Assembly (NCBI RefSeq): GCF_056712565.1 | Contig: NZ_CM160072.1 | DNA length: 64,000 nucleotides | Reading direction: 5' to 3' (one strand) | Shown: positions 26,605 through 37,765 of the stretch, in pieces | How positions within the stretch are numbered: position 1 is the first letter of the stretch | Layout of the letters: each line of letters starts with the position of its first letter | Made by a program: the position numbers and the translations under genes | Notes under the pieces: model-generated | Seen by the model: the letters and a program-made list of their open reading frames with translations, nothing else | Databases searched by the model: none | Told to the model about the DNA's origin: nothing

Positions 26605-26970
26605 ATGATGTCCACCACGTTATTTAAAGATTTCACCTTCGAAGCCGCTCACCGCTTGCCGCACGTCCCACAAGGGCATAAATGTGGTCGCCTGCACGGG
26701 CATTCCTTTATGGTGCGACTGGAAATTACCGGGGAAGTCGATCCGCATACGGGCTGGATTATCGATTTCGCTGAACTGAAAGCGGCGTTTAAACCAACTT
26801 ATGAGCGCCTCGATCACCATTATCTCAATGATATTCCTGGTCTGGAAAACCCAACCAGCGAAGTTTTAGCAAAATGGATTTGGGATCAGGTTAAACCCGT
26901 TGTGCCGCTGTTAAGTGCGGTGATGGTAAAAGAAACCTGCACCGCAGGTTGTATCTATCGCGGCGAATGA
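26605..26970 (+). CDS. queD: 6-carboxy-5,6,7,8-tetrahydropterin synthase
   Basis: Start set at [35 protein letters not shown]... (121 aa); the track ORF extends 28 codons further upstream. Confidence 0.9.
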
Positions 26971-27047
26971 TAAGAGTGTGTCGGCGGTCAATTTCCCTTA
27001 AGTAACGCTATGTTAGGGTGTTGTGTTCTGGATATCTGGGGCATGAC

Positions 27048-28319
27048 ATGGAAGACGACTGCGACATTATTATTATTGGTGCCGGTATTGCTGGCACCGC
27101 TTGCGCGTTACGCTGCGCGCGAGCGGGTTTATCCGTTCTGTTACTGGAACGAGCGGAGATTCCCGGCAGCAAAAATCTTTCCGGCGGGCGGCTATACACC
27201 CATGCGCTCGCGGAACTCCTCCCGCAATTTCACCTGACCGCGCCCCTTGAACGACGCATCACTCACGAAAGTCTTTCTCTGTTAACGCCAGATGGCGCAA
27301 CGACGTTTTCCAGCTTACAGCCCGGCGGTGAATCCTGGAGTGTATTACGTGCACGATTCGATCCGTGGCTGGTTGCCGAAGCCGAAAAAGAAGGTGTCGA
27401 ATGCATCCCCGGTGCGACGGTAGATGCACTGTATGAAGAAAACGGCAGGGTGTGTGGTGTCATTTGTGGTGACGATATTCTTCGCGCCCGTTATGTGGTG
27501 CTGGCAGAAGGTGCCAACAGCGTCCTCGCGGAACGCCACGGGTTAGTGACTCGTCCTGCTGGCGAAGCGATGGCATTGGGGATCAAAGAAGTGCTGACGC
27601 TGGAACCATCCGCTATTGAAGAACGTTTTCATCTGGAGAATAACGAAGGCGCAGCGTTGTTGTTCAGCGGCGGGATCTGTGATGACTTACCCGGCGGCGC
27701 ATTTCTTTATACTAATCAACAAACGCTCTCGTTAGGGATTGTTTGCCCGCTCTCCTCCCTTACGCAAAGTCGTGTTCCGGCAAGCGAGCTGCTGGCTCGC
27801 TTTAAAACGCATCCGGCAGTGCGCCCGCTTATCAAAAACACGGAATCACTGGAGTATGGTGCGCATCTGGTGCCAGAAGGTGGCCTGCGCAGTATGCCGG
27901 TGCAATACGCCGGTAACGGCTGGCTGCTGGTGGGCGATGCGTTGCGCAGTTGCGTCAATACCGGAATTTCCGTGCGCGGTATGGATATGGCGCTAACTGG
28001 CGCGCAGGCGGCGGCACAAACGCTGATAAGCGCCTGCCAGCACCGCGAGCCGCAAAATCTGTTTCCGCTTTATCATCACAACGTAGAGCGCAGCCTGCTG
28101 TGGGATGTTCTACAGCGTTATCAGCATGTTCCGGCGCTTTTGCAACGCCCTGGCTGGTATCGGGTGTGGTCTGGGTTAATGCAGGATATTTCCCGTGATT
28201 TATGGGATCAGGGGAATACACCTGTTCCACCGCTGCGCCAGTTGCTCTGGCGTCATTTACGTCGTCACGGCTTGTGGCATCTGACGGGCGATGTTATCAA
28301 GAGTCTGCGATGTCTGTAG
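27048..28319 (+). CDS. ygcN: FixC-like FAD-dependent oxidoreductase (electron-transfer flavoprotein-quinone oxidoreductase family)
   Basis: Start at MEDDCDIIIIGAGIAGTACALRCARAG (FAD dinucleotide-binding motif), 423 aa. Confidence 0.85.
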   Translation: MEDDCDIIIIGAGIAGTACALRCARAGLSVLLLERAEIPGSKNLSGGRLYTHALAELLPQFHLTAPLERRITHESLSLLTPDGATTFSSLQPGGESWSVLRARFDPWLVAEAEKEGVECIPGATVDALYEENGRVCGVICGDDILRARYVVLAEGANSVLAERHGLVTRPAGEAMALGIKEVLTLEPSAIEERFHLENNEGAALLFSGGICDDLPGGAFLYTNQQTLSLGIVCPLSSLTQSRVPASELLARFKTHPAVRPLIKNTESLEYGAHLVPEGGLRSMPVQYAGNGWLLVGDALRSCVNTGISVRGMDMALTGAQAAAQTLISACQHREPQNLFPLYHHNVERSLLWDVLQRYQHVPALLQRPGWYRVWSGLMQDISRDLWDQGNTPVPPLRQLLWRHLRRHGLWHLTGDVIKSLRCL

Positions 28320-28570
28320 CCCGTAATCTCTGGCGCGCTGCCGATGCGCCGCACATTGTTCCAGCTGACTCCGTTGAGCGCCAGACGGCACAACGGTTGA
28401 TTAACGCCTGTCCAGCAGGTCTTTTTTCGCTCACACCTGAAGGTGGCTTACGTGTTGATTATCACGGCTGCCTGGAGTGTGGCACCTGCCGTTTGCTGTG
28501 CGACGAATCAACACTACAACAGTGGCGCTATCCGCCTTCCGGATTCGGCATCACCTACCGCTTTGGATAA
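28310..28570 (+). CDS. ygcO: FixX-like ferredoxin
   Basis: 86-aa ORF beginning MSVARNLWRA with Cys cluster (CLECGTCRLLCDE); start overlaps ygcN stop. Confidence 0.8.
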   Translation: MSVARNLWRAADAPHIVPADSVERQTAQRLINACPAGLFSLTPEGGLRVDYHGCLECGTCRLLCDESTLQQWRYPPSGFGITYRFG

Positions 28571-28586
28571 ATAATAAGGATAATTT

Positions 28587-29162
28587 ATGCCCCTCTTACA
28601 CCTGCTCCGCCAGAATCCGGTGATTGCTGCCGTTAAAGATAATGCCAGCCTGCAACTGGCAATCGACTCTGAATGCCAGTTTATTTCCGTGTTGTACGGC
28701 AATATCTGCACCATTAGTAATATCGTTAAAAAGATTAAGAACGCCGGGAAATATGCTTTTATTCATGTTGATTTGCTGGAAGGCGCGTCAAATAAAGAAG
28801 TGGTGATTCAGTTTTTGAAACTGGTAACCGAGGCGGACGGAATTATCAGTACCAAAGCCTCAATGCTGAAAGCAGCAAGAGCGGAAGGTTTTTTCTGTAT
28901 TCATCGACTGTTTATTGTTGATTCGATTTCGTTTCACAACATTGATAAGCAAGTTGCGCAATCGAATCCGGATTGTATTGAGATCCTGCCAGGCTGCATG
29001 CCTAAAGTGCTGGGCTGGGTGACGGAGAAAATCCGCCAACCGCTGATTGCTGGCGGGCTGGTGTGCGATGAAGAAGATGCGCGTAATGCGATTAACGCGG
29101 GTGTTGTGGCGCTTTCCACCACGAATACTGGGGTCTGGACGTTAGCGAAAAAATTGCTTTGA
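28587..29162 (+). CDS. ygcP: GlpP-like putative RNA-binding antiterminator
   Basis: 191-aa ORF (MPLLHLLRQNPVIAAVKDNASLQLAIDSECQ...) matching the K-12 YgcP position; GlpP-family assignment is from memory of the annotation. Confidence 0.75.
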   Translation: MPLLHLLRQNPVIAAVKDNASLQLAIDSECQFISVLYGNICTISNIVKKIKNAGKYAFIHVDLLEGASNKEVVIQFLKLVTEADGIISTKASMLKAARAEGFFCIHRLFIVDSISFHNIDKQVAQSNPDCIEILPGCMPKVLGWVTEKIRQPLIAGGLVCDEEDARNAINAGVVALSTTNTGVWTLAKKLL

Positions 29163-29197
29163 CGGGATAATCGTAACAAGTTGAATTTGGTGTGATT

Positions 29198-29270
29198 TGT
29201 AGGCTGCACGCCACATCCGACATTCAGCGCCTGATGCGACGCTTGACGCGTCTTATCAGGCCTACAAGTC
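29198..29270. repeat. REP/BIME-type repetitive extragenic palindromic element(s)
   Basis: Characteristic E. coli REP sequence ...gcctgatgcgacgcttgacgcgtcttatcaggcctacaag between the convergent ygcP and ygcQ. Coordinates approximate. Confidence 0.6.
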
Positions 29271-29309
29271 CCCAGCCCAGAACCATCGGCAGGATCATCC
29301 GGCAGCACG

Positions 29310-30170
29310 TTATTGGCAATCTGCGTGAATGTTTGTCACCAGTGCCTCCAGCACCACTTTCCAGTCATCAACCACGCCAACATCTGCCTGTGAAAATACC
29401 GCTGCACTGGCGTCATGATTAATCGCCACCACAAACTTGCTATTGCGTACGCCCGCCATTAACGCTGCTGCGCCGGAAGCGCCAACAACAATACACACCT
29501 CAGGTGCCAGCAGATGTCCGGAAATACCAATCACTTTTTCGGCATCAACGCCACCGTTCATCACTCGTGCCCGACTGTAGCCCACTTCGGCTCCCATCTT
29601 TTCTGCCAGCATAGCGATTTCCTGGTTATCTGCCTCTCCGCCCTGCCCCACCACCAGCACCCGTCTGGCCTCAGCTAATGGGTCACGGGTAACATTTTTC
29701 AGGTTTTCGACGCTGATAAGCCAGTCTGGAAGCGCGCCGGGAACAATGTTCAGTTGCTGCATCCCAGAGGGCAACGTGGCGTTTTTATCTGCTCCCGCCT
29801 GACGTGCCAGCGAAAGGCATAGCGGGCGTTTTTCTGTTTGCAGCGTCGCCGTCAACGCATTTCCCCAGTGGGATTTGCGCACGCTTACGGTTGGAATATC
29901 TAACGAAGTCACCTGGCAGATGCTTGCACCATGTAAACGCCAGGCCAGCCGGGTCGACAGTTCATCGCCAAACGCGCCCGGAGGAAAAAGGACAACCTCC
30001 GCAGGCGTTCGTTGCCACTGTTCCACCAGCGCATCCAGCACCTGTTCCGCAACCATCGGCTGTGGTTCTATTTGCCAATGCGTTAGTGTGCTGCCGCTGA
30101 AATCCTGCGCCGCCAGCCAGCCCGCCATTGCGGCATGTTCCTGATTTATTGTCACAATTGCGATATTCAT
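29310..30170 (-). CDS. ygcQ: Electron transfer flavoprotein alpha-subunit homolog (FixB-like)
   Basis: Start at MNIAIVTINQEHAAMAGW... (286 aa); ETF-alpha-like C-terminal FAD-binding region. Confidence 0.85.
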   Translation of the reverse strand: MNIAIVTINQEHAAMAGWLAAQDFSGSTLTHWQIEPQPMVAEQVLDALVEQWQRTPAEVVLFPPGAFGDELSTRLAWRLHGASICQVTSLDIPTVSVRKSHWGNALTATLQTEKRPLCLSLARQAGADKNATLPSGMQQLNIVPGALPDWLISVENLKNVTRDPLAEARRVLVVGQGGEADNQEIAMLAEKMGAEVGYSRARVMNGGVDAEKVIGISGHLLAPEVCIVVGASGAAALMAGVRNSKFVVAINHDASAAVFSQADVGVVDDWKVVLEALVTNIHADCQ

Positions 30171-30946
30171 GGCTGCATCCTTTGGCGTAAATAGTCCTGC
30201 CATAGCTTTTGCGCTTTTTCTGCAACCGTTTGCCCATCAATCAGCGCCGCTCTGCGTCGTTGCTCTGGCCTTGCCAGTTGCAGGCACTGTATCGCTGGCG
30301 CTTCCGCGGCAACAGTTTCGCGGGTAATCTCCGCTTTCCCCGCCGCCATTCGCTGGCGCATTCCCGGTACTGGCAAGGCCACTTCACCACACTGACGCAC
30401 GGCAATCACCGCAGGCAAGCGAACCCGGCAACAGCGCACCCCATGTTCAGTACGCTGTTCGAGGGTGATAAACGGTGCGTCGAGAGTAAAGCGCTCCACC
30501 TGGGTGAAGCAGGGCCAGACCAGCATTTCCGCCAGCAAAAATGGCGTTTGCCCATTCTGCCCTTCGCTGCTTTGGCAGCCAGTAATTATCAGATCCAGCG
30601 GATTCTGGTACTGCCATTCGGCAATATGGAGAGCGACAAATTCCGGCGCAAAGCGCAGATCTGCCGCCGTCTCCAGCAATACAGCTTCCTCAAACCCAAG
30701 TGCCATGAGATAGCGCAGCCAGTGCAACGCCCGTTCATCCCCCATGCTCAACGCGGTTAAAGACATCGGCGTACCGTTTTTTCTCTGCGCCAACAGCAGC
30801 GCGGCGGCAGCCTGTTCATCGGCACCGAGTAAACTTCGCAGAAGCGAAACATCCGGTCCGATATTACCCTGAGCCGCCGCCAGCCACTCTTTTTCCGCCA
30901 GCATCCCGGCATCCGGTTCGGCTTTAAACGCTAACAGTATGTTCAT
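30167..30946 (-). CDS. ygcR: Electron transfer flavoprotein beta-subunit homolog (FixA-like)
   Basis: Start at MNILLAFKAEPDAGML... (259 aa); overlaps ygcQ start. Confidence 0.85.
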   Translation of the reverse strand: MNILLAFKAEPDAGMLAEKEWLAAAQGNIGPDVSLLRSLLGADEQAAAALLLAQRKNGTPMSLTALSMGDERALHWLRYLMALGFEEAVLLETAADLRFAPEFVALHIAEWQYQNPLDLIITGCQSSEGQNGQTPFLLAEMLVWPCFTQVERFTLDAPFITLEQRTEHGVRCCRVRLPAVIAVRQCGEVALPVPGMRQRMAAGKAEITRETVAAEAPAIQCLQLARPEQRRRAALIDGQTVAEKAQKLWQDYLRQRMQP

Positions 30947-32261
30947 TCGCACCTCCTGCATTTCCCGCCGCCACCAGCGGGAGTGCTTTGGTTTCTGGTG
31001 CCCATAGCCAGGTCACAACAAAACCAACCAACAACACTGCCGCCAGGAGCAATAAGGTGGCTTGCATTCCCCACTGTGCCAGCACCCACGGCAGCAGGCC
31101 AGTACTTACCGCCGCCCCCAACCGACTCATGGCGGTGGCAAAACCGACGCCCAGCGAGCGAATGTCAGTAGGAAAACTTTCCGCAGGCAAAATGCCCACC
31201 AGATTACTGACTGCCGAAATGGTGGTGCTGAAGAGAACAAAAAGCAGCAGCGTTAATGAACTGCCGGAAGGCAAACAGGCCATTACTACCAGCGTTGCCG
31301 TTAGCAGCAAAAAACTTCCCAGTAAAAATCTGCGATGCGCTAACAAGTGGGTCAACACTAACCCTAATAACGCGCCAACAATTAACAACGCATTAAGCAT
31401 CAGGCTGGCAGTCAGCGCATCTTCCAGACCAATAGTTTGGGCGATGGTCGGCAGCCAGGTATAAATCACAAACCATGGGATTACGAGGCAGACAAAGAAG
31501 ACGCTGTTAAACGCCGTGCGCCGCCAGTAGCGCGAAGAGAACAAGGTTTTGATGTGTTTATGGGTCGCCGTTGCCACTTCATCGCCCAGTAAAACATGGG
31601 GACCAAAGTAGCGATGCACGATAGCGTGAGCTTCTGCAAAACGCCCCTGGCGCAGTAGCCAGCGTGGCGATTCTGGCGTTCCCCAGCGTAATAACGTAAT
31701 CAACAACGCGGGCAGAGCTGCCGATGCCAGCAGCCAGCGCCAGGCCTCCGGGCTTTCGCTAATAAAGTGATGTCCGGCAATACTTGCCAACACATAGCCT
31801 ACGGTCCACACCACGCTGAACGCGCCCAGCAAAACACCGCGATGGCGGCGCGGAGAAAATTCAGCCAGCAAAGTGTGACCTACTGAGTAATCGCCTCCCA
31901 GACCAATGCCGATCAAAATGCGCAATCCAATAAGATGCTCTGGCGTGGTGGCAAAAAATTGCAAGAACGAAGCGAGCGTAATCAGCATAAAACTGAAGGT
32001 GAAGATTTTTTGCCGTCCGATATGGTCGGAGATCCACCCCAAAACCAGGCTGCCAAGAAACAAACCAAGTAACGCCGAGCCGCCGATCATCCCCGCCATA
32101 AACGGCGTCAGTTGCATGGCGGGCGTAAGCTGAATAATGGCGTAACCAATAACGCCGAGGACATAACCGTCGGTCAGGTGTGCGCCGAAAGTGAGCGCAG
32201 CAATTCGACAGTGAAAACGGTTAAGCGGTAAATCATCCATTCGCACCGGTGAAGTGTTCAT
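30924..32261 (-). CDS. ygcS: MFS-family transporter
   Basis: Start at MNTSPVRMDDLPLNRFHCRIAALTFGAH... (445 aa); 12-TM MFS-like hydrophobic profile. Confidence 0.85.
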   Translation of the reverse strand: MNTSPVRMDDLPLNRFHCRIAALTFGAHLTDGYVLGVIGYAIIQLTPAMQLTPFMAGMIGGSALLGLFLGSLVLGWISDHIGRQKIFTFSFMLITLASFLQFFATTPEHLIGLRILIGIGLGGDYSVGHTLLAEFSPRRHRGVLLGAFSVVWTVGYVLASIAGHHFISESPEAWRWLLASAALPALLITLLRWGTPESPRWLLRQGRFAEAHAIVHRYFGPHVLLGDEVATATHKHIKTLFSSRYWRRTAFNSVFFVCLVIPWFVIYTWLPTIAQTIGLEDALTASLMLNALLIVGALLGLVLTHLLAHRRFLLGSFLLLTATLVVMACLPSGSSLTLLLFVLFSTTISAVSNLVGILPAESFPTDIRSLGVGFATAMSRLGAAVSTGLLPWVLAQWGMQATLLLLAAVLLVGFVVTWLWAPETKALPLVAAGNAGGANEHTVSV

Positions 32262-32354
32262 CTTTACCCCTTCATTGTCCGGTAATAAGAACGGCTTCTC
32301 GCCTGAGAAGCCGAAAAGGCAACGCCCCGTCATCGCGGAACGCTGCCTGACACA

Positions 32355-33809
32355 TTATTTTTCAATCGGATAGATAGTACCCGTGTTCATAATGCCATTA
32401 GGATCGAACTGCTTTTTCAGCCCTTCCAGCAACGCCCACGCGCTGCCGTGTTCCAGTTTGCTCCAGTGAACGCGATGTTTACCGATACCGTGGTGGTGCA
32501 CCATCGAACCGCCGAGACGAATGGTTTCTTCGCAGATGATTTTGTTGAGCGGATTGTGGTACTTGTCGATTTCCTCTTCCGGCTTACAGTCAACGACGTT
32601 GTAGTCGTAGACGAAGTACATGTTGGTGCCGTTCTGATAGCTATGAGAGGAGTGACCGCCCAGCATGGTGATGTCGTCGGCGTGCGGGAACTCGGTACGA
32701 ATACGGTTAATAACGCTTTCGTAGATTTCGTGAATGCAGCTCCAGCAGCCGGACACTTCGGTGGTAAAGCCCATGTTGCCGGTTTTGAGGATCTGCACAC
32801 GTTCGGCAGCCACTTTATCCGGTCCCCAGTTCAGGTTGTTAAACCAGGTTTCGATCAGCTTGCTGTCCACGCGCTGGCACTGCGGGTAGCGCGCCACGAT
32901 TTCAGCAATCCCTTCACCCGTCGCCTTCGCAATGCGAGGGTTACCTTCAGCCATAAAGATCAGCACGCATTTGCCGTCGGCAAAATGGGTGAAGTGTTGG
33001 GTGCCATCTTCAGCATCATACAAACGAGCAATCGACGGACGATACCCTTCCACCATGATTTCACGCAGGATGTTGAAGCCGGTTTTCATGTCTTCCAGCA
33101 CATAGCCATAGAAGAGATTGTTTTCCGGCGTAAATTTGAAGATTTTCACTGTGACTTCAGTGATATAGCACAGTGCACCTTCGTTGCCGATGATGATATG
33201 ACGAATGTCCGGGCCAGCCGCGCGACGTGGCACGTTTTTAATGCGTGTGACGGTGCCATCTGCCAGCACCGCTTCCAGACCAACGACCATATCCTCGATT
33301 GCGCCGTAGAGTGTGGAAAACTGCCCGATACTGCGGGTCGCCACCAGGCCGCCCATCTGCGCCAGCGGCTTTGACTGCGGAGAATGCCCCGTGGTGTAAC
33401 CTTTTTCACGCAACGCGTTTTCCAGCACCTCCAGCGGAACGCCACATTGCGCCGTGGCCTGCATATTCTCAATATCAATATTAATGATTTGATTCATGGC
33501 GGAGCCGTCGAGCACCACCGAGTTTTCCACAACGGTTTCCAGCCCACCTTCGGTAGCGGAAGCACCGGTACGCGGCACACCATTAATTTTGTGCGCATTC
33601 ATAAAATTCAGCACACGGGATACTTGTTCTGTGGAACCGAGTTTTACGACCGCTGCCGGAATCGGCAAAGTATAAATGCCATGAATATCCGGAAATTTAC
33701 GAAAACGGTCAATACTGTTTTTCTTTAATACTGTTTCATCGGTAATTACGCGATCTGCACCAACAATTTCCTTTAGCTGGTCGACAATCGCTGCGCGAGA
33801 TAAAGACAT
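32355..33809 (-). CDS. ygcU: FAD-linked oxidoreductase (alkyl-DHAP-synthase/glycolate-oxidase-like FAD-binding PCMH domain)
   Basis: 484-aa ORF MSLSRAAIVDQLKEIVGADRVITDETVLKK... Confidence 0.85.
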   Translation of the reverse strand: MSLSRAAIVDQLKEIVGADRVITDETVLKKNSIDRFRKFPDIHGIYTLPIPAAVVKLGSTEQVSRVLNFMNAHKINGVPRTGASATEGGLETVVENSVVLDGSAMNQIINIDIENMQATAQCGVPLEVLENALREKGYTTGHSPQSKPLAQMGGLVATRSIGQFSTLYGAIEDMVVGLEAVLADGTVTRIKNVPRRAAGPDIRHIIIGNEGALCYITEVTVKIFKFTPENNLFYGYVLEDMKTGFNILREIMVEGYRPSIARLYDAEDGTQHFTHFADGKCVLIFMAEGNPRIAKATGEGIAEIVARYPQCQRVDSKLIETWFNNLNWGPDKVAAERVQILKTGNMGFTTEVSGCWSCIHEIYESVINRIRTEFPHADDITMLGGHSSHSYQNGTNMYFVYDYNVVDCKPEEEIDKYHNPLNKIICEETIRLGGSMVHHHGIGKHRVHWSKLEHGSAWALLEGLKKQFDPNGIMNTGTIYPIEK

Positions 33810-33878
33810 AGTAATTCCTTCCTGATAATAAAAATGGAATAATCATTAATAAGAGAAAACAGAAACCACCGTTATGGA

Positions 33879-34664
33879 TTAGCGCACTAAATAACCGCCA
33901 TCAACCACTAATAAATGTCCGTTGACATAATTCGATGCCGGACTTGCGAGGAATACGGCTGCGCCCATTAAATCCTGAGTATCGCCCCAACGGTTTGCCG
34001 GAATATAATCAAGAACGCGCTGGTTAGTTTCTGGATTACTACGGGTCGCCAGAGTGATATCGGTAGCGTAATATCCCGGGGAAATACCATTCACCTGAAT
34101 ATTATATTGACCTAATTCATCGCAATAGGCTTTGGTGAATCCGGCAAGAGCATGTTTAGTGGCAGAATAAGCCGGTGACCATTGACCACCTGAGTAAGAG
34201 AACAATGAACAGATATTAATGATTTTACCGCTTTTCTGCGGGATCATAATTTTTGCAGCTTCATAGCTTAACTCGAATGCGGCGGTAAGGTTCACGTCAA
34301 TCATCGGATCCCAGTCGGCACGCCCGAAGTCCAGCACCTTATTCAGCTTACATATACCGGCATTGTTAACCAGAATATCGACGGTACCGAAACGCTCACA
34401 GCAGGCAGCGATAATCTTCTGCGGTGCGCCTTCTGCGGTGATATCCACCTGCATGAAGTCCACTTCAACACCCTGTTTTTCAATCATTTCCTTTGTTTCG
34501 CCGTTATCTTTGACGAAACTTGGAATAAAGACATTTGCGCCAGCCTTGGCCAGCGCCATGGCAAATGCCTGGCCTAATCCGCTATTCCCGCCGGTAACAA
34601 TTGCTGTTTTACCTTTCAGGGAGAAAAAATCCATTGAGAACGCATTGAGAGATTCGATTGACAT
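33879..34664 (-). CDS. ygcW: Short-chain dehydrogenase/reductase
   Basis: Start at MSIESLNAFSMDFFSLKGKTAIVTGGNSGLGQ (TGxxxGxG SDR motif), 261 aa; GGAG RBS upstream. Confidence 0.85.
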   Translation of the reverse strand: MSIESLNAFSMDFFSLKGKTAIVTGGNSGLGQAFAMALAKAGANVFIPSFVKDNGETKEMIEKQGVEVDFMQVDITAEGAPQKIIAACCERFGTVDILVNNAGICKLNKVLDFGRADWDPMIDVNLTAAFELSYEAAKIMIPQKSGKIINICSLFSYSGGQWSPAYSATKHALAGFTKAYCDELGQYNIQVNGISPGYYATDITLATRSNPETNQRVLDYIPANRWGDTQDLMGAAVFLASPASNYVNGHLLVVDGGYLVR

Positions 34665-34688
34665 AGTTAGCTCCAATTTCCGTAAGGC

Positions 34689-34736
34689 AAAAAAAAAGAA
34701 AGGTAACTTCCCCCGCGAGAGGGAAGTTACCTTTCT
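34689..34736 (-). terminator. Intrinsic-terminator-like hairpin plus U9 tract in the ygcW leader (candidate attenuator)
   Basis: Perfect 14–16 bp inverted repeat (aaaggtaacttccc / gggaagttaccttt, 8-nt loop) preceded on the + strand by nine A residues, which gives a hairpin followed by U9 on the minus strand about 25 nt upstream of the ygcW start codon. Confidence 0.5.
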
Positions 34737-34910
34737 CATTATCTCTGGTAACTGGAGATAATTTTTAGCATAAGGGCATAACTGCTAATGTGATCGTAAT
34801 CACAGAGTGATGTTCGTATTATCAAATAGTTTTAAAAAGCAGAAGCGTGATTACTCTCACACAACACCTTTTCTTTCCATGTTATTTCTTATTGCAATTA
34901 CTAGAGACCT

Positions 34911-34958
34911 GAGAAAAGTAATCCACCTGAAAGGGCGGCTTACTTTTCTCTTTTTTTT
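34911..34958 (+). terminator. Intrinsic-terminator-like hairpin plus T8 tract in the yqcE leader (candidate attenuator)
   Basis: 11-bp inverted repeat (gagaaaagtaa ... ttacttttctc, 18-nt loop) followed by eight T residues on the + strand, ending about 25 nt before the yqcE ATG. Confidence 0.45.
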
Positions 34959-34982
34959 GTCTATTACAAATGGGAATACGAT

Positions 34983-36260
34983 ATGCAACACAACTCATAT
35001 CGCCGTTGGATAACCCTCGCGATAATTAGTTTTAGCGGCGGCGTTAGTTTCGACCTGGCTTATTTACGTTATATTTATCAAATTCCCATGGCAAAATTTA
35101 TGGGATTCAGCAATACCGAGATAGGTTTAATAATGAGTACCTTTGGTATTGCGGCCATTATTTTCTATGCCCCTAGCGGCGTTATTGCCGATAAATTTTC
35201 ACACCGCAAAATGATTACTTCCGCGATGATCATTACCGGATTACTGGGCCTGATAATGGCAACATATCCACCACTGTGGGTAATGCTCTGTATTCAGGTC
35301 GCCTTTGCGATAACGACGATTTTAATGCTGTGGTCGGTGTCGATTAAAGCCGCATCGTTGCTGGGCGATCATAGCGAGCAAGGGAAAATTATGGGCTGGA
35401 TGGAAGGGCTGCGCGGCGTCGGTGTAATGTCGCTGGCGGTGTTTACCATGTGGGTCTTTTCTCGCTTTGCACCGGATGACAGCGCCAGCCTGAAAACGGT
35501 CATTATTATCTATAGTGTGGTTTACATTCTGCTGGGCATTTTGTGTTGGTTTTTTGTTAGCGATAACAACAATCTGCGCAGTGCCAATAACGAAGAAAAA
35601 CAGTCATTCCAGCTTAGCGACATCCTGGCCGTTTTGCGCATCAGCACCACCTGGTATTGCAGCATGGTGATTTTTGGTGTCTTCACCATCTACGCCATTC
35701 TGAGTTACTCCACCAACTATCTGACCGAAATGTACGGCATGTCACTGGTGGCAGCGAGCTACATGGGGATTGTGATCAACAAAATCTTCCGCGCGTTATG
35801 CGGCCCACTTGGCGGCATTATCACCACCTACAGCAAAGTGAAATCCCCTACCCGCGTGGTCCAAATCCTTTCCATCATCGGTTTGCTGGCATTGACAGCC
35901 CTGCTCGTTACGAACTCTAACCCGCAATCGGTCGCGATGGGGATTGGCTTGATTTTATTACTGGGATTCACCTGTTACGCCTCACGCGGGCTGTATTGGG
36001 CCTGCCCTGGCGAAGCGAGAACACCGTCTTACATTATGGGCACCACGGTAGGTATTTGTTCGGTGATTGGATTCCTGCCGGATGTCTTCGTTTACCCGAT
36101 TATCGGCTACTGGCAAGACACCCTGCCCGCTGCAGAAGCCTACCGCAACATGTGGCTAATGGGCATGGCGGCGCTTGGCATGGTGATCATCTTTACCTTT
36201 TTGCTGTTCCAAAAAATTCGTACTGCTGATAGCGCCCCCGCAATGGCTAGCAGCAAGTAA
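34983..36260 (+). CDS. yqcE: MFS-family transporter
   Basis: 425-aa multi-TM ORF MQHNSYRRWITLAIISFSGGVSFDLAY... Confidence 0.85.
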   Translation: MQHNSYRRWITLAIISFSGGVSFDLAYLRYIYQIPMAKFMGFSNTEIGLIMSTFGIAAIIFYAPSGVIADKFSHRKMITSAMIITGLLGLIMATYPPLWVMLCIQVAFAITTILMLWSVSIKAASLLGDHSEQGKIMGWMEGLRGVGVMSLAVFTMWVFSRFAPDDSASLKTVIIIYSVVYILLGILCWFFVSDNNNLRSANNEEKQSFQLSDILAVLRISTTWYCSMVIFGVFTIYAILSYSTNYLTEMYGMSLVAASYMGIVINKIFRALCGPLGGIITTYSKVKSPTRVVQILSIIGLLALTALLVTNSNPQSVAMGIGLILLLGFTCYASRGLYWACPGEARTPSYIMGTTVGICSVIGFLPDVFVYPIIGYWQDTLPAAEAYRNMWLMGMAALGMVIIFTFLLFQKIRTADSAPAMASSK

Positions 36261-36286
36261 GCCAGGAAAATTACAGGAGAAAAATC

Positions 36287-37765
36287 ATGTCGAAAAAATA
36301 CATCATAGGGATTGATGGCGGAAGTCAGAGCACAAAAGTGGTGATGTACGATCTGGAAGGTAATGTGGTTTGCGAAGGCAAAGGCTTATTGCAGCCGATG
36401 CACACGCCAGATGCCGATACCGCAGAACATCCTGACGACGATTTATGGGCATCATTATGCTTTGCCGGCCACGATTTGATGAGCCAGTTTGCCGGGAATA
36501 AAGAAGATATTGTCGGCATTGGCCTGGGATCCATCCGTTGCTGCCGTGCGTTATTGAAAGCCGATGGCACGCCTGCTGCGCCGTTGATTAGCTGGCAGGA
36601 TGCACGCGTAACGCGTCCCTACGAACACACTAATCCTGACGTGGCATATGTCACCTCTTTTTCGGGTTATCTGACGCACCGTTTAACGGGCGAATTTAAA
36701 GATAATATCGCCAACTATTTTGGTCAGTGGCCGGTGGATTATAAGACCTGGGCATGGAGCGAAGATGCCGCGGTAATGGAAAAGTTTAATATCCCCCGCC
36801 AGATGCTTTTTGACGTGCAAATGCCGGGCACCATTCTTGGGCATATCACACCACAAGCTGCGCTGGCGACACATTTCCCGGCTGGGCTGCCGGTTGTTTG
36901 TACCACCAGTGATAAACCGGTAGAAGCTCTGGGAGCCGGGTTACTGGATGATGAAACGGCGGTAATTTCTCTTGGCACCTATATCGCGTTAATGATGAAC
37001 GGCAAAGCACTGCCGAAAGATCCGGTCGCGTACTGGCCGATTATGTCTTCTATTCCGCAAACATTGCTGTATGAAGGTTACGGTATTCGCAAAGGCATGT
37101 GGACGGTGAGCTGGCTGCGCGACATGTTAGGCGAGTCGTTAATTCAGGATGCCAAAGCACAGGATCTTTCACCGGAAGATTTGCTCAACAAAAAAGCGTC
37201 TTGCGTGCCACCTGGTTGTAATGGGCTGATGACGGTGCTGGACTGGCTGACCAATCCGTGGGAACCGTACAAACGCGGAATTATGATCGGCTTTGATTCC
37301 AGTATGGATTACGCATGGATATATCGTTCGATACTGGAAAGCGTGGCGCTGACGCTGAAGAATAATTACGACAATATGTGTCATGAAATGAATCACTTTG
37401 CAAAGCATGTGATCATTACTGGCGGCGGTTCGAACAGCGATCTGTTTATGCAGATTTTTGCCGACGTGTTCAACCTTCCGGCACGCCGTAACGCCATTAA
37501 CGGTTGTGCAAGTCTGGGGGCAGCGATTAATACGGCGGTAGGTCTGGGGCTATACCCGGATTACGCAACGGCTGTCGACAAAATGGTTCGCGTGAAAGAT
37601 ATCTTTATGCCTGTTGAGAACAATGCCAAACGCTACGACGCGATGAATAAAGGCATTTTCAAGGAGTTAACCAAACATACTGATGTAATCCTGAAAAAAT
37701 CGTATGAAGTGATGCATGGGGAATTGGGGAATGCGGATTCGATCCAGAGCTGGTCGAATGCGTAA
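36287..37765 (+). CDS. ygcE: FGGY-family carbohydrate kinase
   Basis: 492-aa ORF MSKKYIIGIDGGSQSTKVVMYDLEG... with FGGY kinase N-terminal motif. Confidence 0.85.
   Translation: MSKKYIIGIDGGSQSTKVVMYDLEGNVVCEGKGLLQPMHTPDADTAEHPDDDLWASLCFAGHDLMSQFAGNKEDIVGIGLGSIRCCRALLKADGTPAAPLISWQDARVTRPYEHTNPDVAYVTSFSGYLTHRLTGEFKDNIANYFGQWPVDYKTWAWSEDAAVMEKFNIPRQMLFDVQMPGTILGHITPQAALATHFPAGLPVVCTTSDKPVEALGAGLLDDETAVISLGTYIALMMNGKALPKDPVAYWPIMSSIPQTLLYEGYGIRKGMWTVSWLRDMLGESLIQDAKAQDLSPEDLLNKKASCVPPGCNGLMTVLDWLTNPWEPYKRGIMIGFDSSMDYAWIYRSILESVALTLKNNYDNMCHEMNHFAKHVIITGGGSNSDLFMQIFADVFNLPARRNAINGCASLGAAINTAVGLGLYPDYATAVDKMVRVKDIFMPVENNAKRYDAMNKGIFKELTKHTDVILKKSYEVMHGELGNADSIQSWSNA

Follow-up and report, generated by a model that had tools for sequence, protein, structure and literature searches.

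The ygc gene cluster of Escherichia coli: a possible CRP-dependent, antiterminator-gated module for catabolism of a C1-substituted glycerol-like compound

Introduction

Which compound do the ygc genes of Escherichia coli break down, and how are they switched on? The genes occupy positions 26605-37765 of a 64,000-nucleotide stretch (NCBI RefSeq assembly GCF_056712565.1, contig NZ_CM160072.1), the whole of which is termed the window here. This part of the window is the ygc region of the E. coli chromosome and is 100% identical to several complete E. coli chromosomes. An original prediction had listed two major facilitator superfamily (MFS) transporters, a kinase, a short-chain dehydrogenase/reductase (SDR), a flavoenzyme, an electron-transfer flavoprotein (ETF), a pair resembling ETF:quinone oxidoreductase (ETF-QO) and an antiterminator. 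Annotation and domain searches confirm these parts, and all named genes had been placed correctly, as judged by the open reading frame (ORF) list and the RefSeq annotation of the identical stretch. We propose, by analogy and with slightly less than even confidence, that the cluster may be a catabolic module, dependent on CRP and gated by an antiterminator, whose substrate is glycerol-like and bears a substituent at C1.

The substrate had been called undefined, and this still holds: no assignment of a substrate or pathway to the ygc genes was found in the open-access full-text literature, a search by which a paper in a subscription journal could be missed. The gene names occur in regulon lists, in a MazF proteomics study with YgcR as a hit, and in screens. 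A paper of March 2026 still terms YgcU an uncharacterised "FAD-binding oxidoreductase" (PMC13012123). The cluster itself is known sequence. What is new is a module of YgcW, YgcE, YgcU and YgcP (W, E, U and P) that crosses phyla together with quaternary-amine transporters, an active site of the alkyl-dihydroxyacetonephosphate synthase (ADPS) type, and a leader RNA outside Rfam.

Results

The conserved unit comprises SDR, kinase, flavoenzyme and antiterminator

The gene order is queD (plus strand), ygcN-ygcO-ygcP (plus), ygcQ-ygcR-ygcS-ygcU-ygcW (minus, transcribed from ygcW) and yqcE-ygcE (plus). Since the gaps or overlaps within each block are short, the genes form three operons, ygcNOP, ygcWUSRQ and yqcE-ygcE. 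ORFs were called and clustered in 83 loci around relatives of YgcU, and counts of loci given below refer to this set. YgcU proteins 65-76% identical to that of E. coli were found in Sporomusa, Desulfobacterales, SAR324, Photobacterium and Halobacillus/Virgibacillus, as well as in Geosporobacter, Syntrophomonadaceae, Saccharopolyspora and a rumen Eubacterium. Compared with the E. coli proteins, W and U show 62-81% identity in Sporomusa, Desulfobacterales, Halobacillus and Photobacterium; the values in other phyla are 39-61% for P, 43-58% for E and 26-41% for the ETF subunits. The components occurred as follows.

YgcU: 81 of 83 loci
YgcW: 76 of 83
YgcE: 69 of 83
ETF alpha and beta: 61 and 59 of 83
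YgcP: 54 of 83
YqcE: 46 of 83
YgcS: 41 of 83
YgcN: 35 of 83
YgcO: 21 of 83
second GlcD-type flavoenzyme, termed U2: 17 of 83
BCCT transporters: 14 of 83
OpuAC-type ABC systems: about 7 of 83

As judged from these sequences, the conserved unit is the SDR, the FGGY kinase and YgcU, with the antiterminator. These genes lie in the window at:

33879-34664, minus strand: ygcW, KduD-like SDR, first gene of the ygcWUSRQ operon
32355-33809, minus strand: ygcU, alkyl-DHAP-synthase-like flavoenzyme (FAD_binding_4 and FAD-oxidase_C; DHAP, dihydroxyacetone phosphate)
36287-37765, plus strand: ygcE, FGGY-family kinase (FGGY_N and FGGY_C)
28587-29162, plus strand: ygcP, predicted GlpP-family RNA-binding antiterminator (PF04309), third gene of the ygcNOP operon

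Outside Enterobacterales the usual order is P, W, E, U, ETF beta, ETF alpha, U2, sometimes a second ETF pair, and then a BCCT or ABC transporter. The minimal module of Halobacillus consists of P beside W-E-U-BCCT. Two loci carried unexpected taxon labels: ygcU of a metagenome-assembled genome labelled Planctomycetota (L005) is 100% identical to that of E. coli, and a locus labelled Chryseobacterium sp. 18061 (L028) has an 88% identical ygcU in Enterobacteriaceae-type synteny (cysJ, cysI). Both are probably contaminating or mis-binned enterobacterial contigs, judging by these identities.

YgcU carries the catalytic residues of alkyl-DHAP synthase

YgcU combines a VAO/PCMH-type FAD-binding domain with a cap domain (PF01565, 124 bits; PF02913, 72.4 bits). 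Its closest solved relatives by sequence are ADPS (also termed AGPS) of guinea pig and Dictyostelium, eukaryotic flavoenzymes of ether-lipid synthesis (E 2e-40 with a single sequence, 2e-56 with a profile); lactate, glycolate and 2-hydroxyglutarate dehydrogenases rank next. The catalytic arginine, tyrosine and histidine triplet of ADPS (Arg419, Tyr578 and His615-617) aligned with YgcU R262, Y398 and H438-440 in a profile alignment. These YgcU residues are invariant in 14 orthologues from several phyla. The ADPS numbering was fixed by the titles of the mutant PDB entries 4bc7 (Arg419His) and 4bca (Tyr578Phe). In ADPS the tyrosine acts as base and deprotonates acyl-DHAP at C1; the resulting carbanion forms an adduct with flavin N5, after which the acyl group departs and an alcohol takes its place (PMC3509576). 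A Foldseek search returned AGPS for all of the top 36 chains (E 2e-28, TM score 0.67), the query being an AlphaFold model of YgcU made from a 14-sequence alignment, of mediocre quality (predicted local distance difference test 67) and used for fold ranking only.

The two proteins differ in length (658 and 484 residues for ADPS and YgcU, respectively), and the alignment begins at ADPS residue 194 and YgcU residue 38. Because YgcU lacks the N-terminal region of roughly 190 residues that, with its gatekeeping helix, gates the hydrophobic C16 tunnel for the fatty chain in ADPS, its sequence marks it as ADPS-like and not as an ADPS. Unlike ADPS, YgcU is encoded in a catabolic operon with the ETF genes directly downstream in most lineages, which implies a net electron transfer; it is bacterial and, judging by the BCCT and MFS transporters of the module, presumably oriented towards a soluble substrate. 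The earlier label "FAD oxidase" thus holds as far as a FAD flavoenzyme is meant, and "alkyl-DHAP-synthase-like" is more exact.

Two leader attenuators flank a CRP site

Two leader attenuators and a CRP site, none of which figured in the original prediction, would explain how an antiterminator acts on this cluster:

34685-34757, minus strand: ygcW leader attenuator (covariance model 73.7 bits, E 8.5e-13)
34789-34804, strandless: CRP site TGTGATCGTAATCACA, common to both divergent promoters
34892-34961, plus strand: yqcE leader attenuator (covariance model 70.2 bits, E 4.8e-12)

Each strand of the 318-bp spacer between ygcW and yqcE bears a strong hairpin followed by a U run that ends about 25-30 nt before the start codon. 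Common to both leaders is the motif RUUACY-AGAG(N)GAGAAA-RGUAAY, whose two hexamers are able to pair (P1, 6 bp) and then enclose a purine-rich loop. The antiterminator P1 of the ygcW leader pairs 34752-34747 with 34731-34726 around the loop AGAGAUAAUGAGAAA, and the terminator stem extends over 34737-34696 with the U run at 34695-34687. The corresponding elements of the yqcE leader are P1 at 34897-34902 and 34917-34922 with the loop AGAGACCUGAGAAA, the terminator at 34911-34950 and the U run at 34951-34958. P1 overlaps the 5' strand of the terminator and would sequester it, and the two folds are mutually exclusive. Folding energies of the terminator and the P1-enforced structures are -34.2 versus -15.6 kcal/mol and -22.3 versus -6.5 kcal/mol for the two leaders. 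The terminator fold is much more stable, so the default state would be "off" and P1 would need to be stabilised.

About 90 distinct versions of the leader were found beside YgcU loci in Gammaproteobacteria, Firmicutes and Actinobacteria. P1 was paired in all 246 cells of a 41-sequence alignment, with double changes at three of the six pairs, compared to 17-65% pairing in slid controls; the terminator was 88% paired with compensatory changes. Such changes include alignment column 31, whose partner is column 11 in the P1 fold and column 67 in the terminator fold. The covariance model found only two strong sites (at least 70 bits) in the window, those at 73.7 and 70.2 bits; its other matches, at about 30 bits, are reverse-strand images of both leaders. 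Nearly every Enterobacterales locus searched has two sites. Elsewhere the leader precedes W operons, BCCT, MFS and ABC transporter genes, an MttB operon and, in some Clostridia, the junction between E and U. Three clostridial loci have such an operon-internal third copy, with the kinase gene on one side and the ygcU orthologue on the other (L063, 9848-9914; L065, 9826-9915; L068, 8713-8800); this copy would gate the downstream genes separately.

Leader and YgcP occur together: 58 loci have both, 20 neither, five the leader only (four of these on short contigs) and none YgcP only. No family in Rfam 15 corresponds to either leader. A match to rliE (26 bits against a gathering score of 90) was discarded as merely terminator-like. 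Scanning metagenomes with the leader pattern gave five loci, all with Enterobacterales-type clusters, and did not widen the regulon. A 9-bp GC-rich hairpin followed by a weak T-rich tract is present at 32292-32313 (minus strand), just within the 5' end of ygcS, and did not match the leader covariance model.

YgcP matches the G3P_antiterm profile PF04309 over its full length (210.6 bits, positions 1-173 of 173) and the structure of Listeria GlpP (3kts, E 1.2e-27). The ygcNOP operon has no such leader, and the regulator YgcP is therefore expressed separately. Antitermination by GlpP at the glp leaders of B. subtilis has been described (PMC9604022), and by analogy the leader architecture appears to be the one described there. 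As at the leader terminators of glpD, glpFK and glpTQ, a protein of family PF04309 is paired with a terminator just downstream of the promoter of its target operons, and a kinase of the regulon could make a phosphorylated inducer. Different are the regulon and presumably the ligand of YgcP, as well as the Gram-negative host in which YgcP works together with CRP; the leader motif is newly defined here and absent from Rfam 15.

The CRP palindrome between the leaders is the sole perfect match in the 64 kb (0.07 expected). A CRP site in this spacer had been predicted (PMC1794230), and CRP was bound there in enterotoxigenic E. coli by chromatin immunoprecipitation (PMC4287617) and in vitro, with footprint data and a dissociation constant of ~1.7 nM (PMC12871828). 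Transcription of yqcE-ygcE is activated by CRP (PMC8085971). The catabolic role proposed originally, a sequence of uptake, oxidation and phosphorylation, fits this CRP binding and activation.

Transporters and neighbouring genes suggest a trimethylammonium compound

The transporter genes of the E. coli cluster are:

30924-32333, minus strand: ygcS, MFS transporter (Sugar_tr), sugar-porter / organic-cation-like branch
34983-36260, plus strand: yqcE, MFS transporter, distant relative of the D-galactonate (anion:cation symporter) group

YgcS was confined to Enterobacterales; orthologues of yqcE are also part of the Photobacterium and Eubacterium modules. Overexpression of YgcS aids nicotinamide mononucleotide production (PMC8601175); we did not adopt this compound as the physiological substrate, the published result being an overexpression effect only.

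In Firmicutes, Desulfobacterota, SAR324 and Photobacterium, BCCT or OpuAC-ABC transporters are encoded inside the module or behind the same leader. The BCCT proteins are nearest to carriers of glycine betaine, choline and carnitine, under the cut-offs of those models, and the ABC binding protein is nearest to EgtUC (ergothioneine), ProX and OpuBC/OpuCC. All of these binding proteins cage a trimethylammonium group. In several anaerobes the module contains or adjoins genes for MttB-family methyltransferases, a corrinoid protein and an MtrH-like methyltransferase, and in some Bacillota PanB-like and proline-racemase-like genes stand behind the leader; loci with such accompanying genes are L071 (8456-9877 and 10004-16626), L075 (6997-14032), L058 (4362-7279) and L055 (20095-21437). 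In L075 the accompanying genes lie behind a YgcP-type leader. The betaine-type transporters and the MttB genes together point to a trimethylammonium compound. An Alkalihalobacillus string combines OpuAC, an aspartase-like lyase, a BADH-like aldehyde dehydrogenase, a Zn-alcohol dehydrogenase, BCCT, W, E and U; its accessory genes would take homoserine betaine to fumarate and trimethylamine. Two other candidates were ranked low, glycerophosphocholine because simple phosphodiesterases already cleave it, and 2,3-dihydroxypropanesulfonate, an anion for which betaine-type transporters are unsuited. E. coli excretes the latter compound.

These neighbours bear on the compounds that had originally been suggested for growth tests, polyols and acid sugars. 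An uncharged polyol or an acid sugar would be taken up by an MFS transporter and oxidised by SDR and flavoenzyme, the FGGY kinase would phosphorylate the ketose, and ETF and ETF-QO would serve as electron sink. This fits the SDR, the kinase and the transporters: YgcW is nearly a KduD (NF005390, 347.7 bits against a cut-off of 369; TIGR01832, 273.8 against 338.85), the best matches of YgcE are xylulokinase, autoinducer-2 kinase and gluconokinase models, YgcS matches sugar-porter models and YqcE the D-galactonate transporter group, and the cluster is activated by CRP. However, modules whose W and U are 62-81% identical have BCCT/OpuAC-type and not sugar transporters, and none of the enzymes usual in sugar routes (aldolase, isomerase, dehydratase) is a conserved companion of the module in the 83 loci. 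In addition, the YgcU residues are of the ADPS and not of the dehydrogenase type, and none of the cluster proteins reaches its NCBIfam equivalog cut-off. We consider a polyol or acid-sugar pathway unlikely and such a substrate probably wrong; the inspection of ygcU neighbourhoods that had been suggested as a check gave it no support, turning up betaine-type transporters and MttB genes instead.

The kinase YgcE

Both FGGY domains are present in YgcE (PF00370, 71 bits; PF02782, 78 bits), and the protein remains far under the cut-offs of every named FGGY kinase. Asp245 of glycerol kinase aligned with an aspartate in YgcE, Arg83 and Trp103 are kept as well, and Glu84 is replaced by cysteine. E. 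coli YgcE is 55-58% identical to Firmicute kinases but only 46-48% to those of Serratia, Erwinia and Budvicia (comparisons with L003, L063, L034 and L038). These identities suggest that the kinase was replaced or transferred, with two kinase lineages within the module.

YgcE could also belong to an alternative route for glycerol or glycerol-3-phosphate (G3P), as a glycerol-type kinase, with YgcU, ETF and YgcN/O acting as 2-dehydrogenase of G3P or an analogue and YgcP sensing G3P. The full-length GlpP-family match of YgcP, the three retained glycerol-kinase residues and the DHAP moiety bound by an ADPS-type site would agree with this. E. coli, however, possesses GlpK, GlpD and GlpABC already, such a route has no use for the SDR and the betaine-type transporters, the Glu84 of glycerol kinase is lost, and YgcE scores 102.7 bits where the GlpK model demands 590. 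We regard this route as quite improbable.

The electron-transfer half is the variable part of the module

The proposed electron chain is encoded by four genes in two operons:

27048-28319, plus strand: ygcN, FixC-like FAD oxidoreductase with ETF-QO ubiquinone-binding domain, proposed ETF:quinone oxidoreductase
28310-28570, plus strand: ygcO, small FixX-like protein, putatively ferredoxin-type, partner of YgcN (10-nt overlap with ygcN)
29310-30170, minus strand: ygcQ, ETF alpha subunit, divergent and short (286 residues)
30167-30946, minus strand: ygcR, ETF beta subunit (overlaps of 4 nt with ygcQ and 23 nt with ygcS)

The domains for ETF beta, ETF alpha FAD binding and quinone binding (PF01012, PF00766 and PF21162) are all above cut-off, the last in YgcN at 31.3 bits against 27.7. 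The equivalog models, in contrast, are missed widely: YgcN reaches 361 of 610 bits for FixC (NF007542), YgcO 83 of 166 for FixX (NF011993), YgcQ 61.7 of 549 for the FixB type and YgcR 41.6 of 445 for ETF beta. The match of YgcO to a 4Fe-4S ferredoxin domain stays under its cut-off as well (Fer4_9, 20.1 bits against 27). By the equivalog scores YgcN, O, Q and R are divergent paralogues of FixC, X, B and A and not orthologues.

FixABCX and YdiQRST of E. coli are modules of ETF plus ETF-QO-like proteins that are attached to carnitine and other pathways. The ygc genes share this four-component make-up: ETF beta and alpha, a flavoprotein of the FixC kind and a FixX-like, putatively ferredoxin-type protein. 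They differ in being divided between two operons, in a FixCX-like pair that was found in Enterobacterales loci only, and in an ETF that shares just 26-41% identity with the module's ETFs from other phyla. The earlier description as a FixABCX-like module therefore stands for domains and components, not for orthology.

A flavoenzyme gene of the GlcD family beside an ETF pair is also known from the LctBCD lactate dehydrogenase-ETF complex of Acetobacterium woodii (PDB 7qh2). In the wider module, however, the protein that resembles LctD is U2, which is absent from E. coli and carries the LctD/GlcD-type EHG and His motifs; YgcU has HHHGIGK where LctD and U2 carry (G/S)EHG(I/V)G. That YgcU itself is an ETF-dependent D-2-hydroxyacid dehydrogenase (lactate, glycolate or 2-hydroxyglutarate type), working like LctD with LctBC and fed by other genes, is very doubtful despite the common fold family, the matches to LctD, D-LDH and D2HGDH and the lct-like position of ygcU next to the ETF genes, since its motifs are ADPS-type in place of the EHG metal and substrate motif, the co-encoded U2 is the better candidate, the GlcD equivalog TIGR00387 gives 143.9 bits against 567.9, and the kinase and the G3P-type antiterminator would stay unexplained.

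Erwinia/Pantoea/Paramixta-type loci have a LysR-controlled operon of ygcS, a Fae-like gene (homologue of formaldehyde-activating enzyme, PF08714), an aldo-keto reductase and an aldehyde dehydrogenase in place of ETF/FixCX (L034, L039, L045, L048, L049 and L092), with W-U, yqcE-E and P adjoining. In SAR324 the same set of four genes is joined to BCCT-W-U-E (L050, 5033-12948), and Yersinia pseudotuberculosis has ygcS, the Fae-like and the aldo-keto reductase genes alone (L091, 8627-12939).

Among Enterobacteriaceae the non-synonymous divergence (dN) of ygcQ, R, N and O amounted to 0.15-0.63, compared to 0.02-0.07 for ygcW, U and P, a 5-15-fold difference; ygcQ alone reached 0.30-0.63. Synonymous divergence (dS) was saturated in this comparison, so that dN/dS ratios are rough. 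Many E. coli YgcS entries are shortened (329-420 residues) or fused to ETF or YgcU domains (P0121, P0137, P0139, P0141, P0144, P0148, P0156, P0180 and P0215), and shortened YgcU entries occur as well. These entries suggest frameshifts or stop-codon changes around ygcS in a fraction of E. coli strains. From the high dN and the shortened or fused entries, the electron-transfer half may be under relaxed selection, and in the comparison across loci it is the variable part of the module and not its conserved core.

The same data could indicate that the E. coli cluster is a cryptic or partly decaying remnant, in which the W-E-U-P core is kept but strong selection on the electron-transfer half has ceased, so that laboratory strains find no growth substrate. 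About 7% of the complete E. coli genomes carry less than 80% of the region, which would agree with decay. Nevertheless, all reading frames are intact in the window, dN/dS of the ETF genes is still about 0.1-0.2 (with the saturated dS), and both leaders and the CRP site are fully conserved, and we think decay very unlikely. At least 80% of the region is present in 5060 of 5426 complete E. coli genomes; "island" is accordingly a loose term for a cluster that is near-core in the species. The original view of conserved core content is borne out within E. coli, but across lineages ETF and FixCX vary and the core is W-E-U(-P).

Flanking genes and intergenic elements

The cluster is flanked by cysJIH upstream and queE downstream, and one neighbour had been counted as a member:

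26608-26970, plus strand: queD, neighbour gene

queD adjoins the cluster in 23 of the 83 loci, within Enterobacteriaceae only. Like queE it is an unrelated neighbour outside the system, and its inclusion is not upheld. The convergent ygcP/ygcQ intergenic region contains an element resembling repetitive extragenic palindromes at 29179-29262 (plus strand). It scores 39.3 bits with Rfam naRNA4 (RF02564), under the gathering score of 59.5, and stable hairpins are predicted on both strands.

Discussion

Synthesis of the ether-lipid backbone uses an alkylglycerol kinase, an SDR-type alkyl-DHAP reductase and ADPS. The pathway that we propose is drawn by analogy with these three enzymes and with GlpP and G3P. 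A 1-substituted glycerol would be imported by YgcS and/or YqcE and phosphorylated by YgcE at its free primary hydroxyl to an analogue of G3P. This phosphate ester would be the ligand that lets YgcP bind P1 and block termination, like G3P for GlpP in B. subtilis. YgcW would then oxidise C2 to a 1-substituted DHAP, which is the alkyl-DHAP reductase reaction in reverse. YgcU would deprotonate C1, capture it on flavin N5 and subsequently either expel the substituent or oxidise C1. Electrons would pass from YgcU via ETF (YgcR/Q) and YgcN/O to quinone, and the three-carbon phosphate would enter glycolysis. Since the ETF genes directly follow ygcU in most lineages, a net transfer of two electrons to ETF is expected; oxidative cleavage is one option for YgcU, simple redox poising of the flavin another.

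The most speculative step concerns the substituent. It might be a trimethylammonium group of the betaine type, for instance the head group that deacylated betaine lipids carry in ether linkage; diacylglyceryltrimethylhomoserine (DGTS) and diacylglycerylhydroxymethyltrimethylalanine (DGTA) are betaine lipids of this kind. These lipids became candidates because they combine a glyceryl ether, which would need an ADPS-type enzyme, with a trimethylammonium group. Searches of the open-access literature gave no description of an FGGY+BCCT+ETF pathway or of betaine-lipid catabolism by this route. That W-E-U is a widespread ether-lipid backbone pathway run in reverse on betaine-lipid head groups, in which the ETF-coupled, ADPS-type flavoenzyme cleaves the glyceryl ether and a GlpP-like protein reads the leader in response to the phosphorylated intermediate across at least five phyla, is a bold extension that we rate as improbable.

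Several observations weigh against a module for a C1-substituted glycerol. The E. coli cluster has no BCCT or OpuAC transporter, and its YgcS and YqcE come from MFS families that usually carry sugars or organic anions. The kinase has lost Glu84, and the order of kinase before SDR is a guess. Regarding YgcU, the tunnel-gating region is missing, residues 275-344 are unaligned to ADPS, and the structural model is of limited quality. ADPS chemistry is redox-neutral, and a simple reversal of this reaction leaves the tight linkage of U and ETF unexplained. Aerobic Bacilli, SAR324 and the Erwinia/Pantoea group, moreover, do without ETF, and the electron-transfer genes of Enterobacteriaceae diverge fast. 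Finally, the set of Fae-like protein, aldo-keto reductase and aldehyde dehydrogenase and the LctD-like U2 are not accounted for by the proposed pathway, into which the PanB-like and proline-racemase-like genes and the second MFS transporter do not fit either.

The ygc genes make up one of the larger parts of E. coli metabolism that still lack an assignment, and the E. coli cluster is one version of a module that is present in marine sulfate reducers, acetogens, halophilic bacilli and rumen bacteria. The shared module and the ADPS-type residues narrow the substrate search from polyols to 1-substituted glycerol or DHAP derivatives, probably cationic. For this search the two leader RNAs offer a direct reporter of the inducer, and the leader is a candidate for a new RNA family with a defined protein partner. 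If the betaine-lipid idea is true, the module would represent a new route of ether cleavage and would link abundant phosphorus-free lipids of algae and fungi to bacterial carbon and methylamine metabolism.

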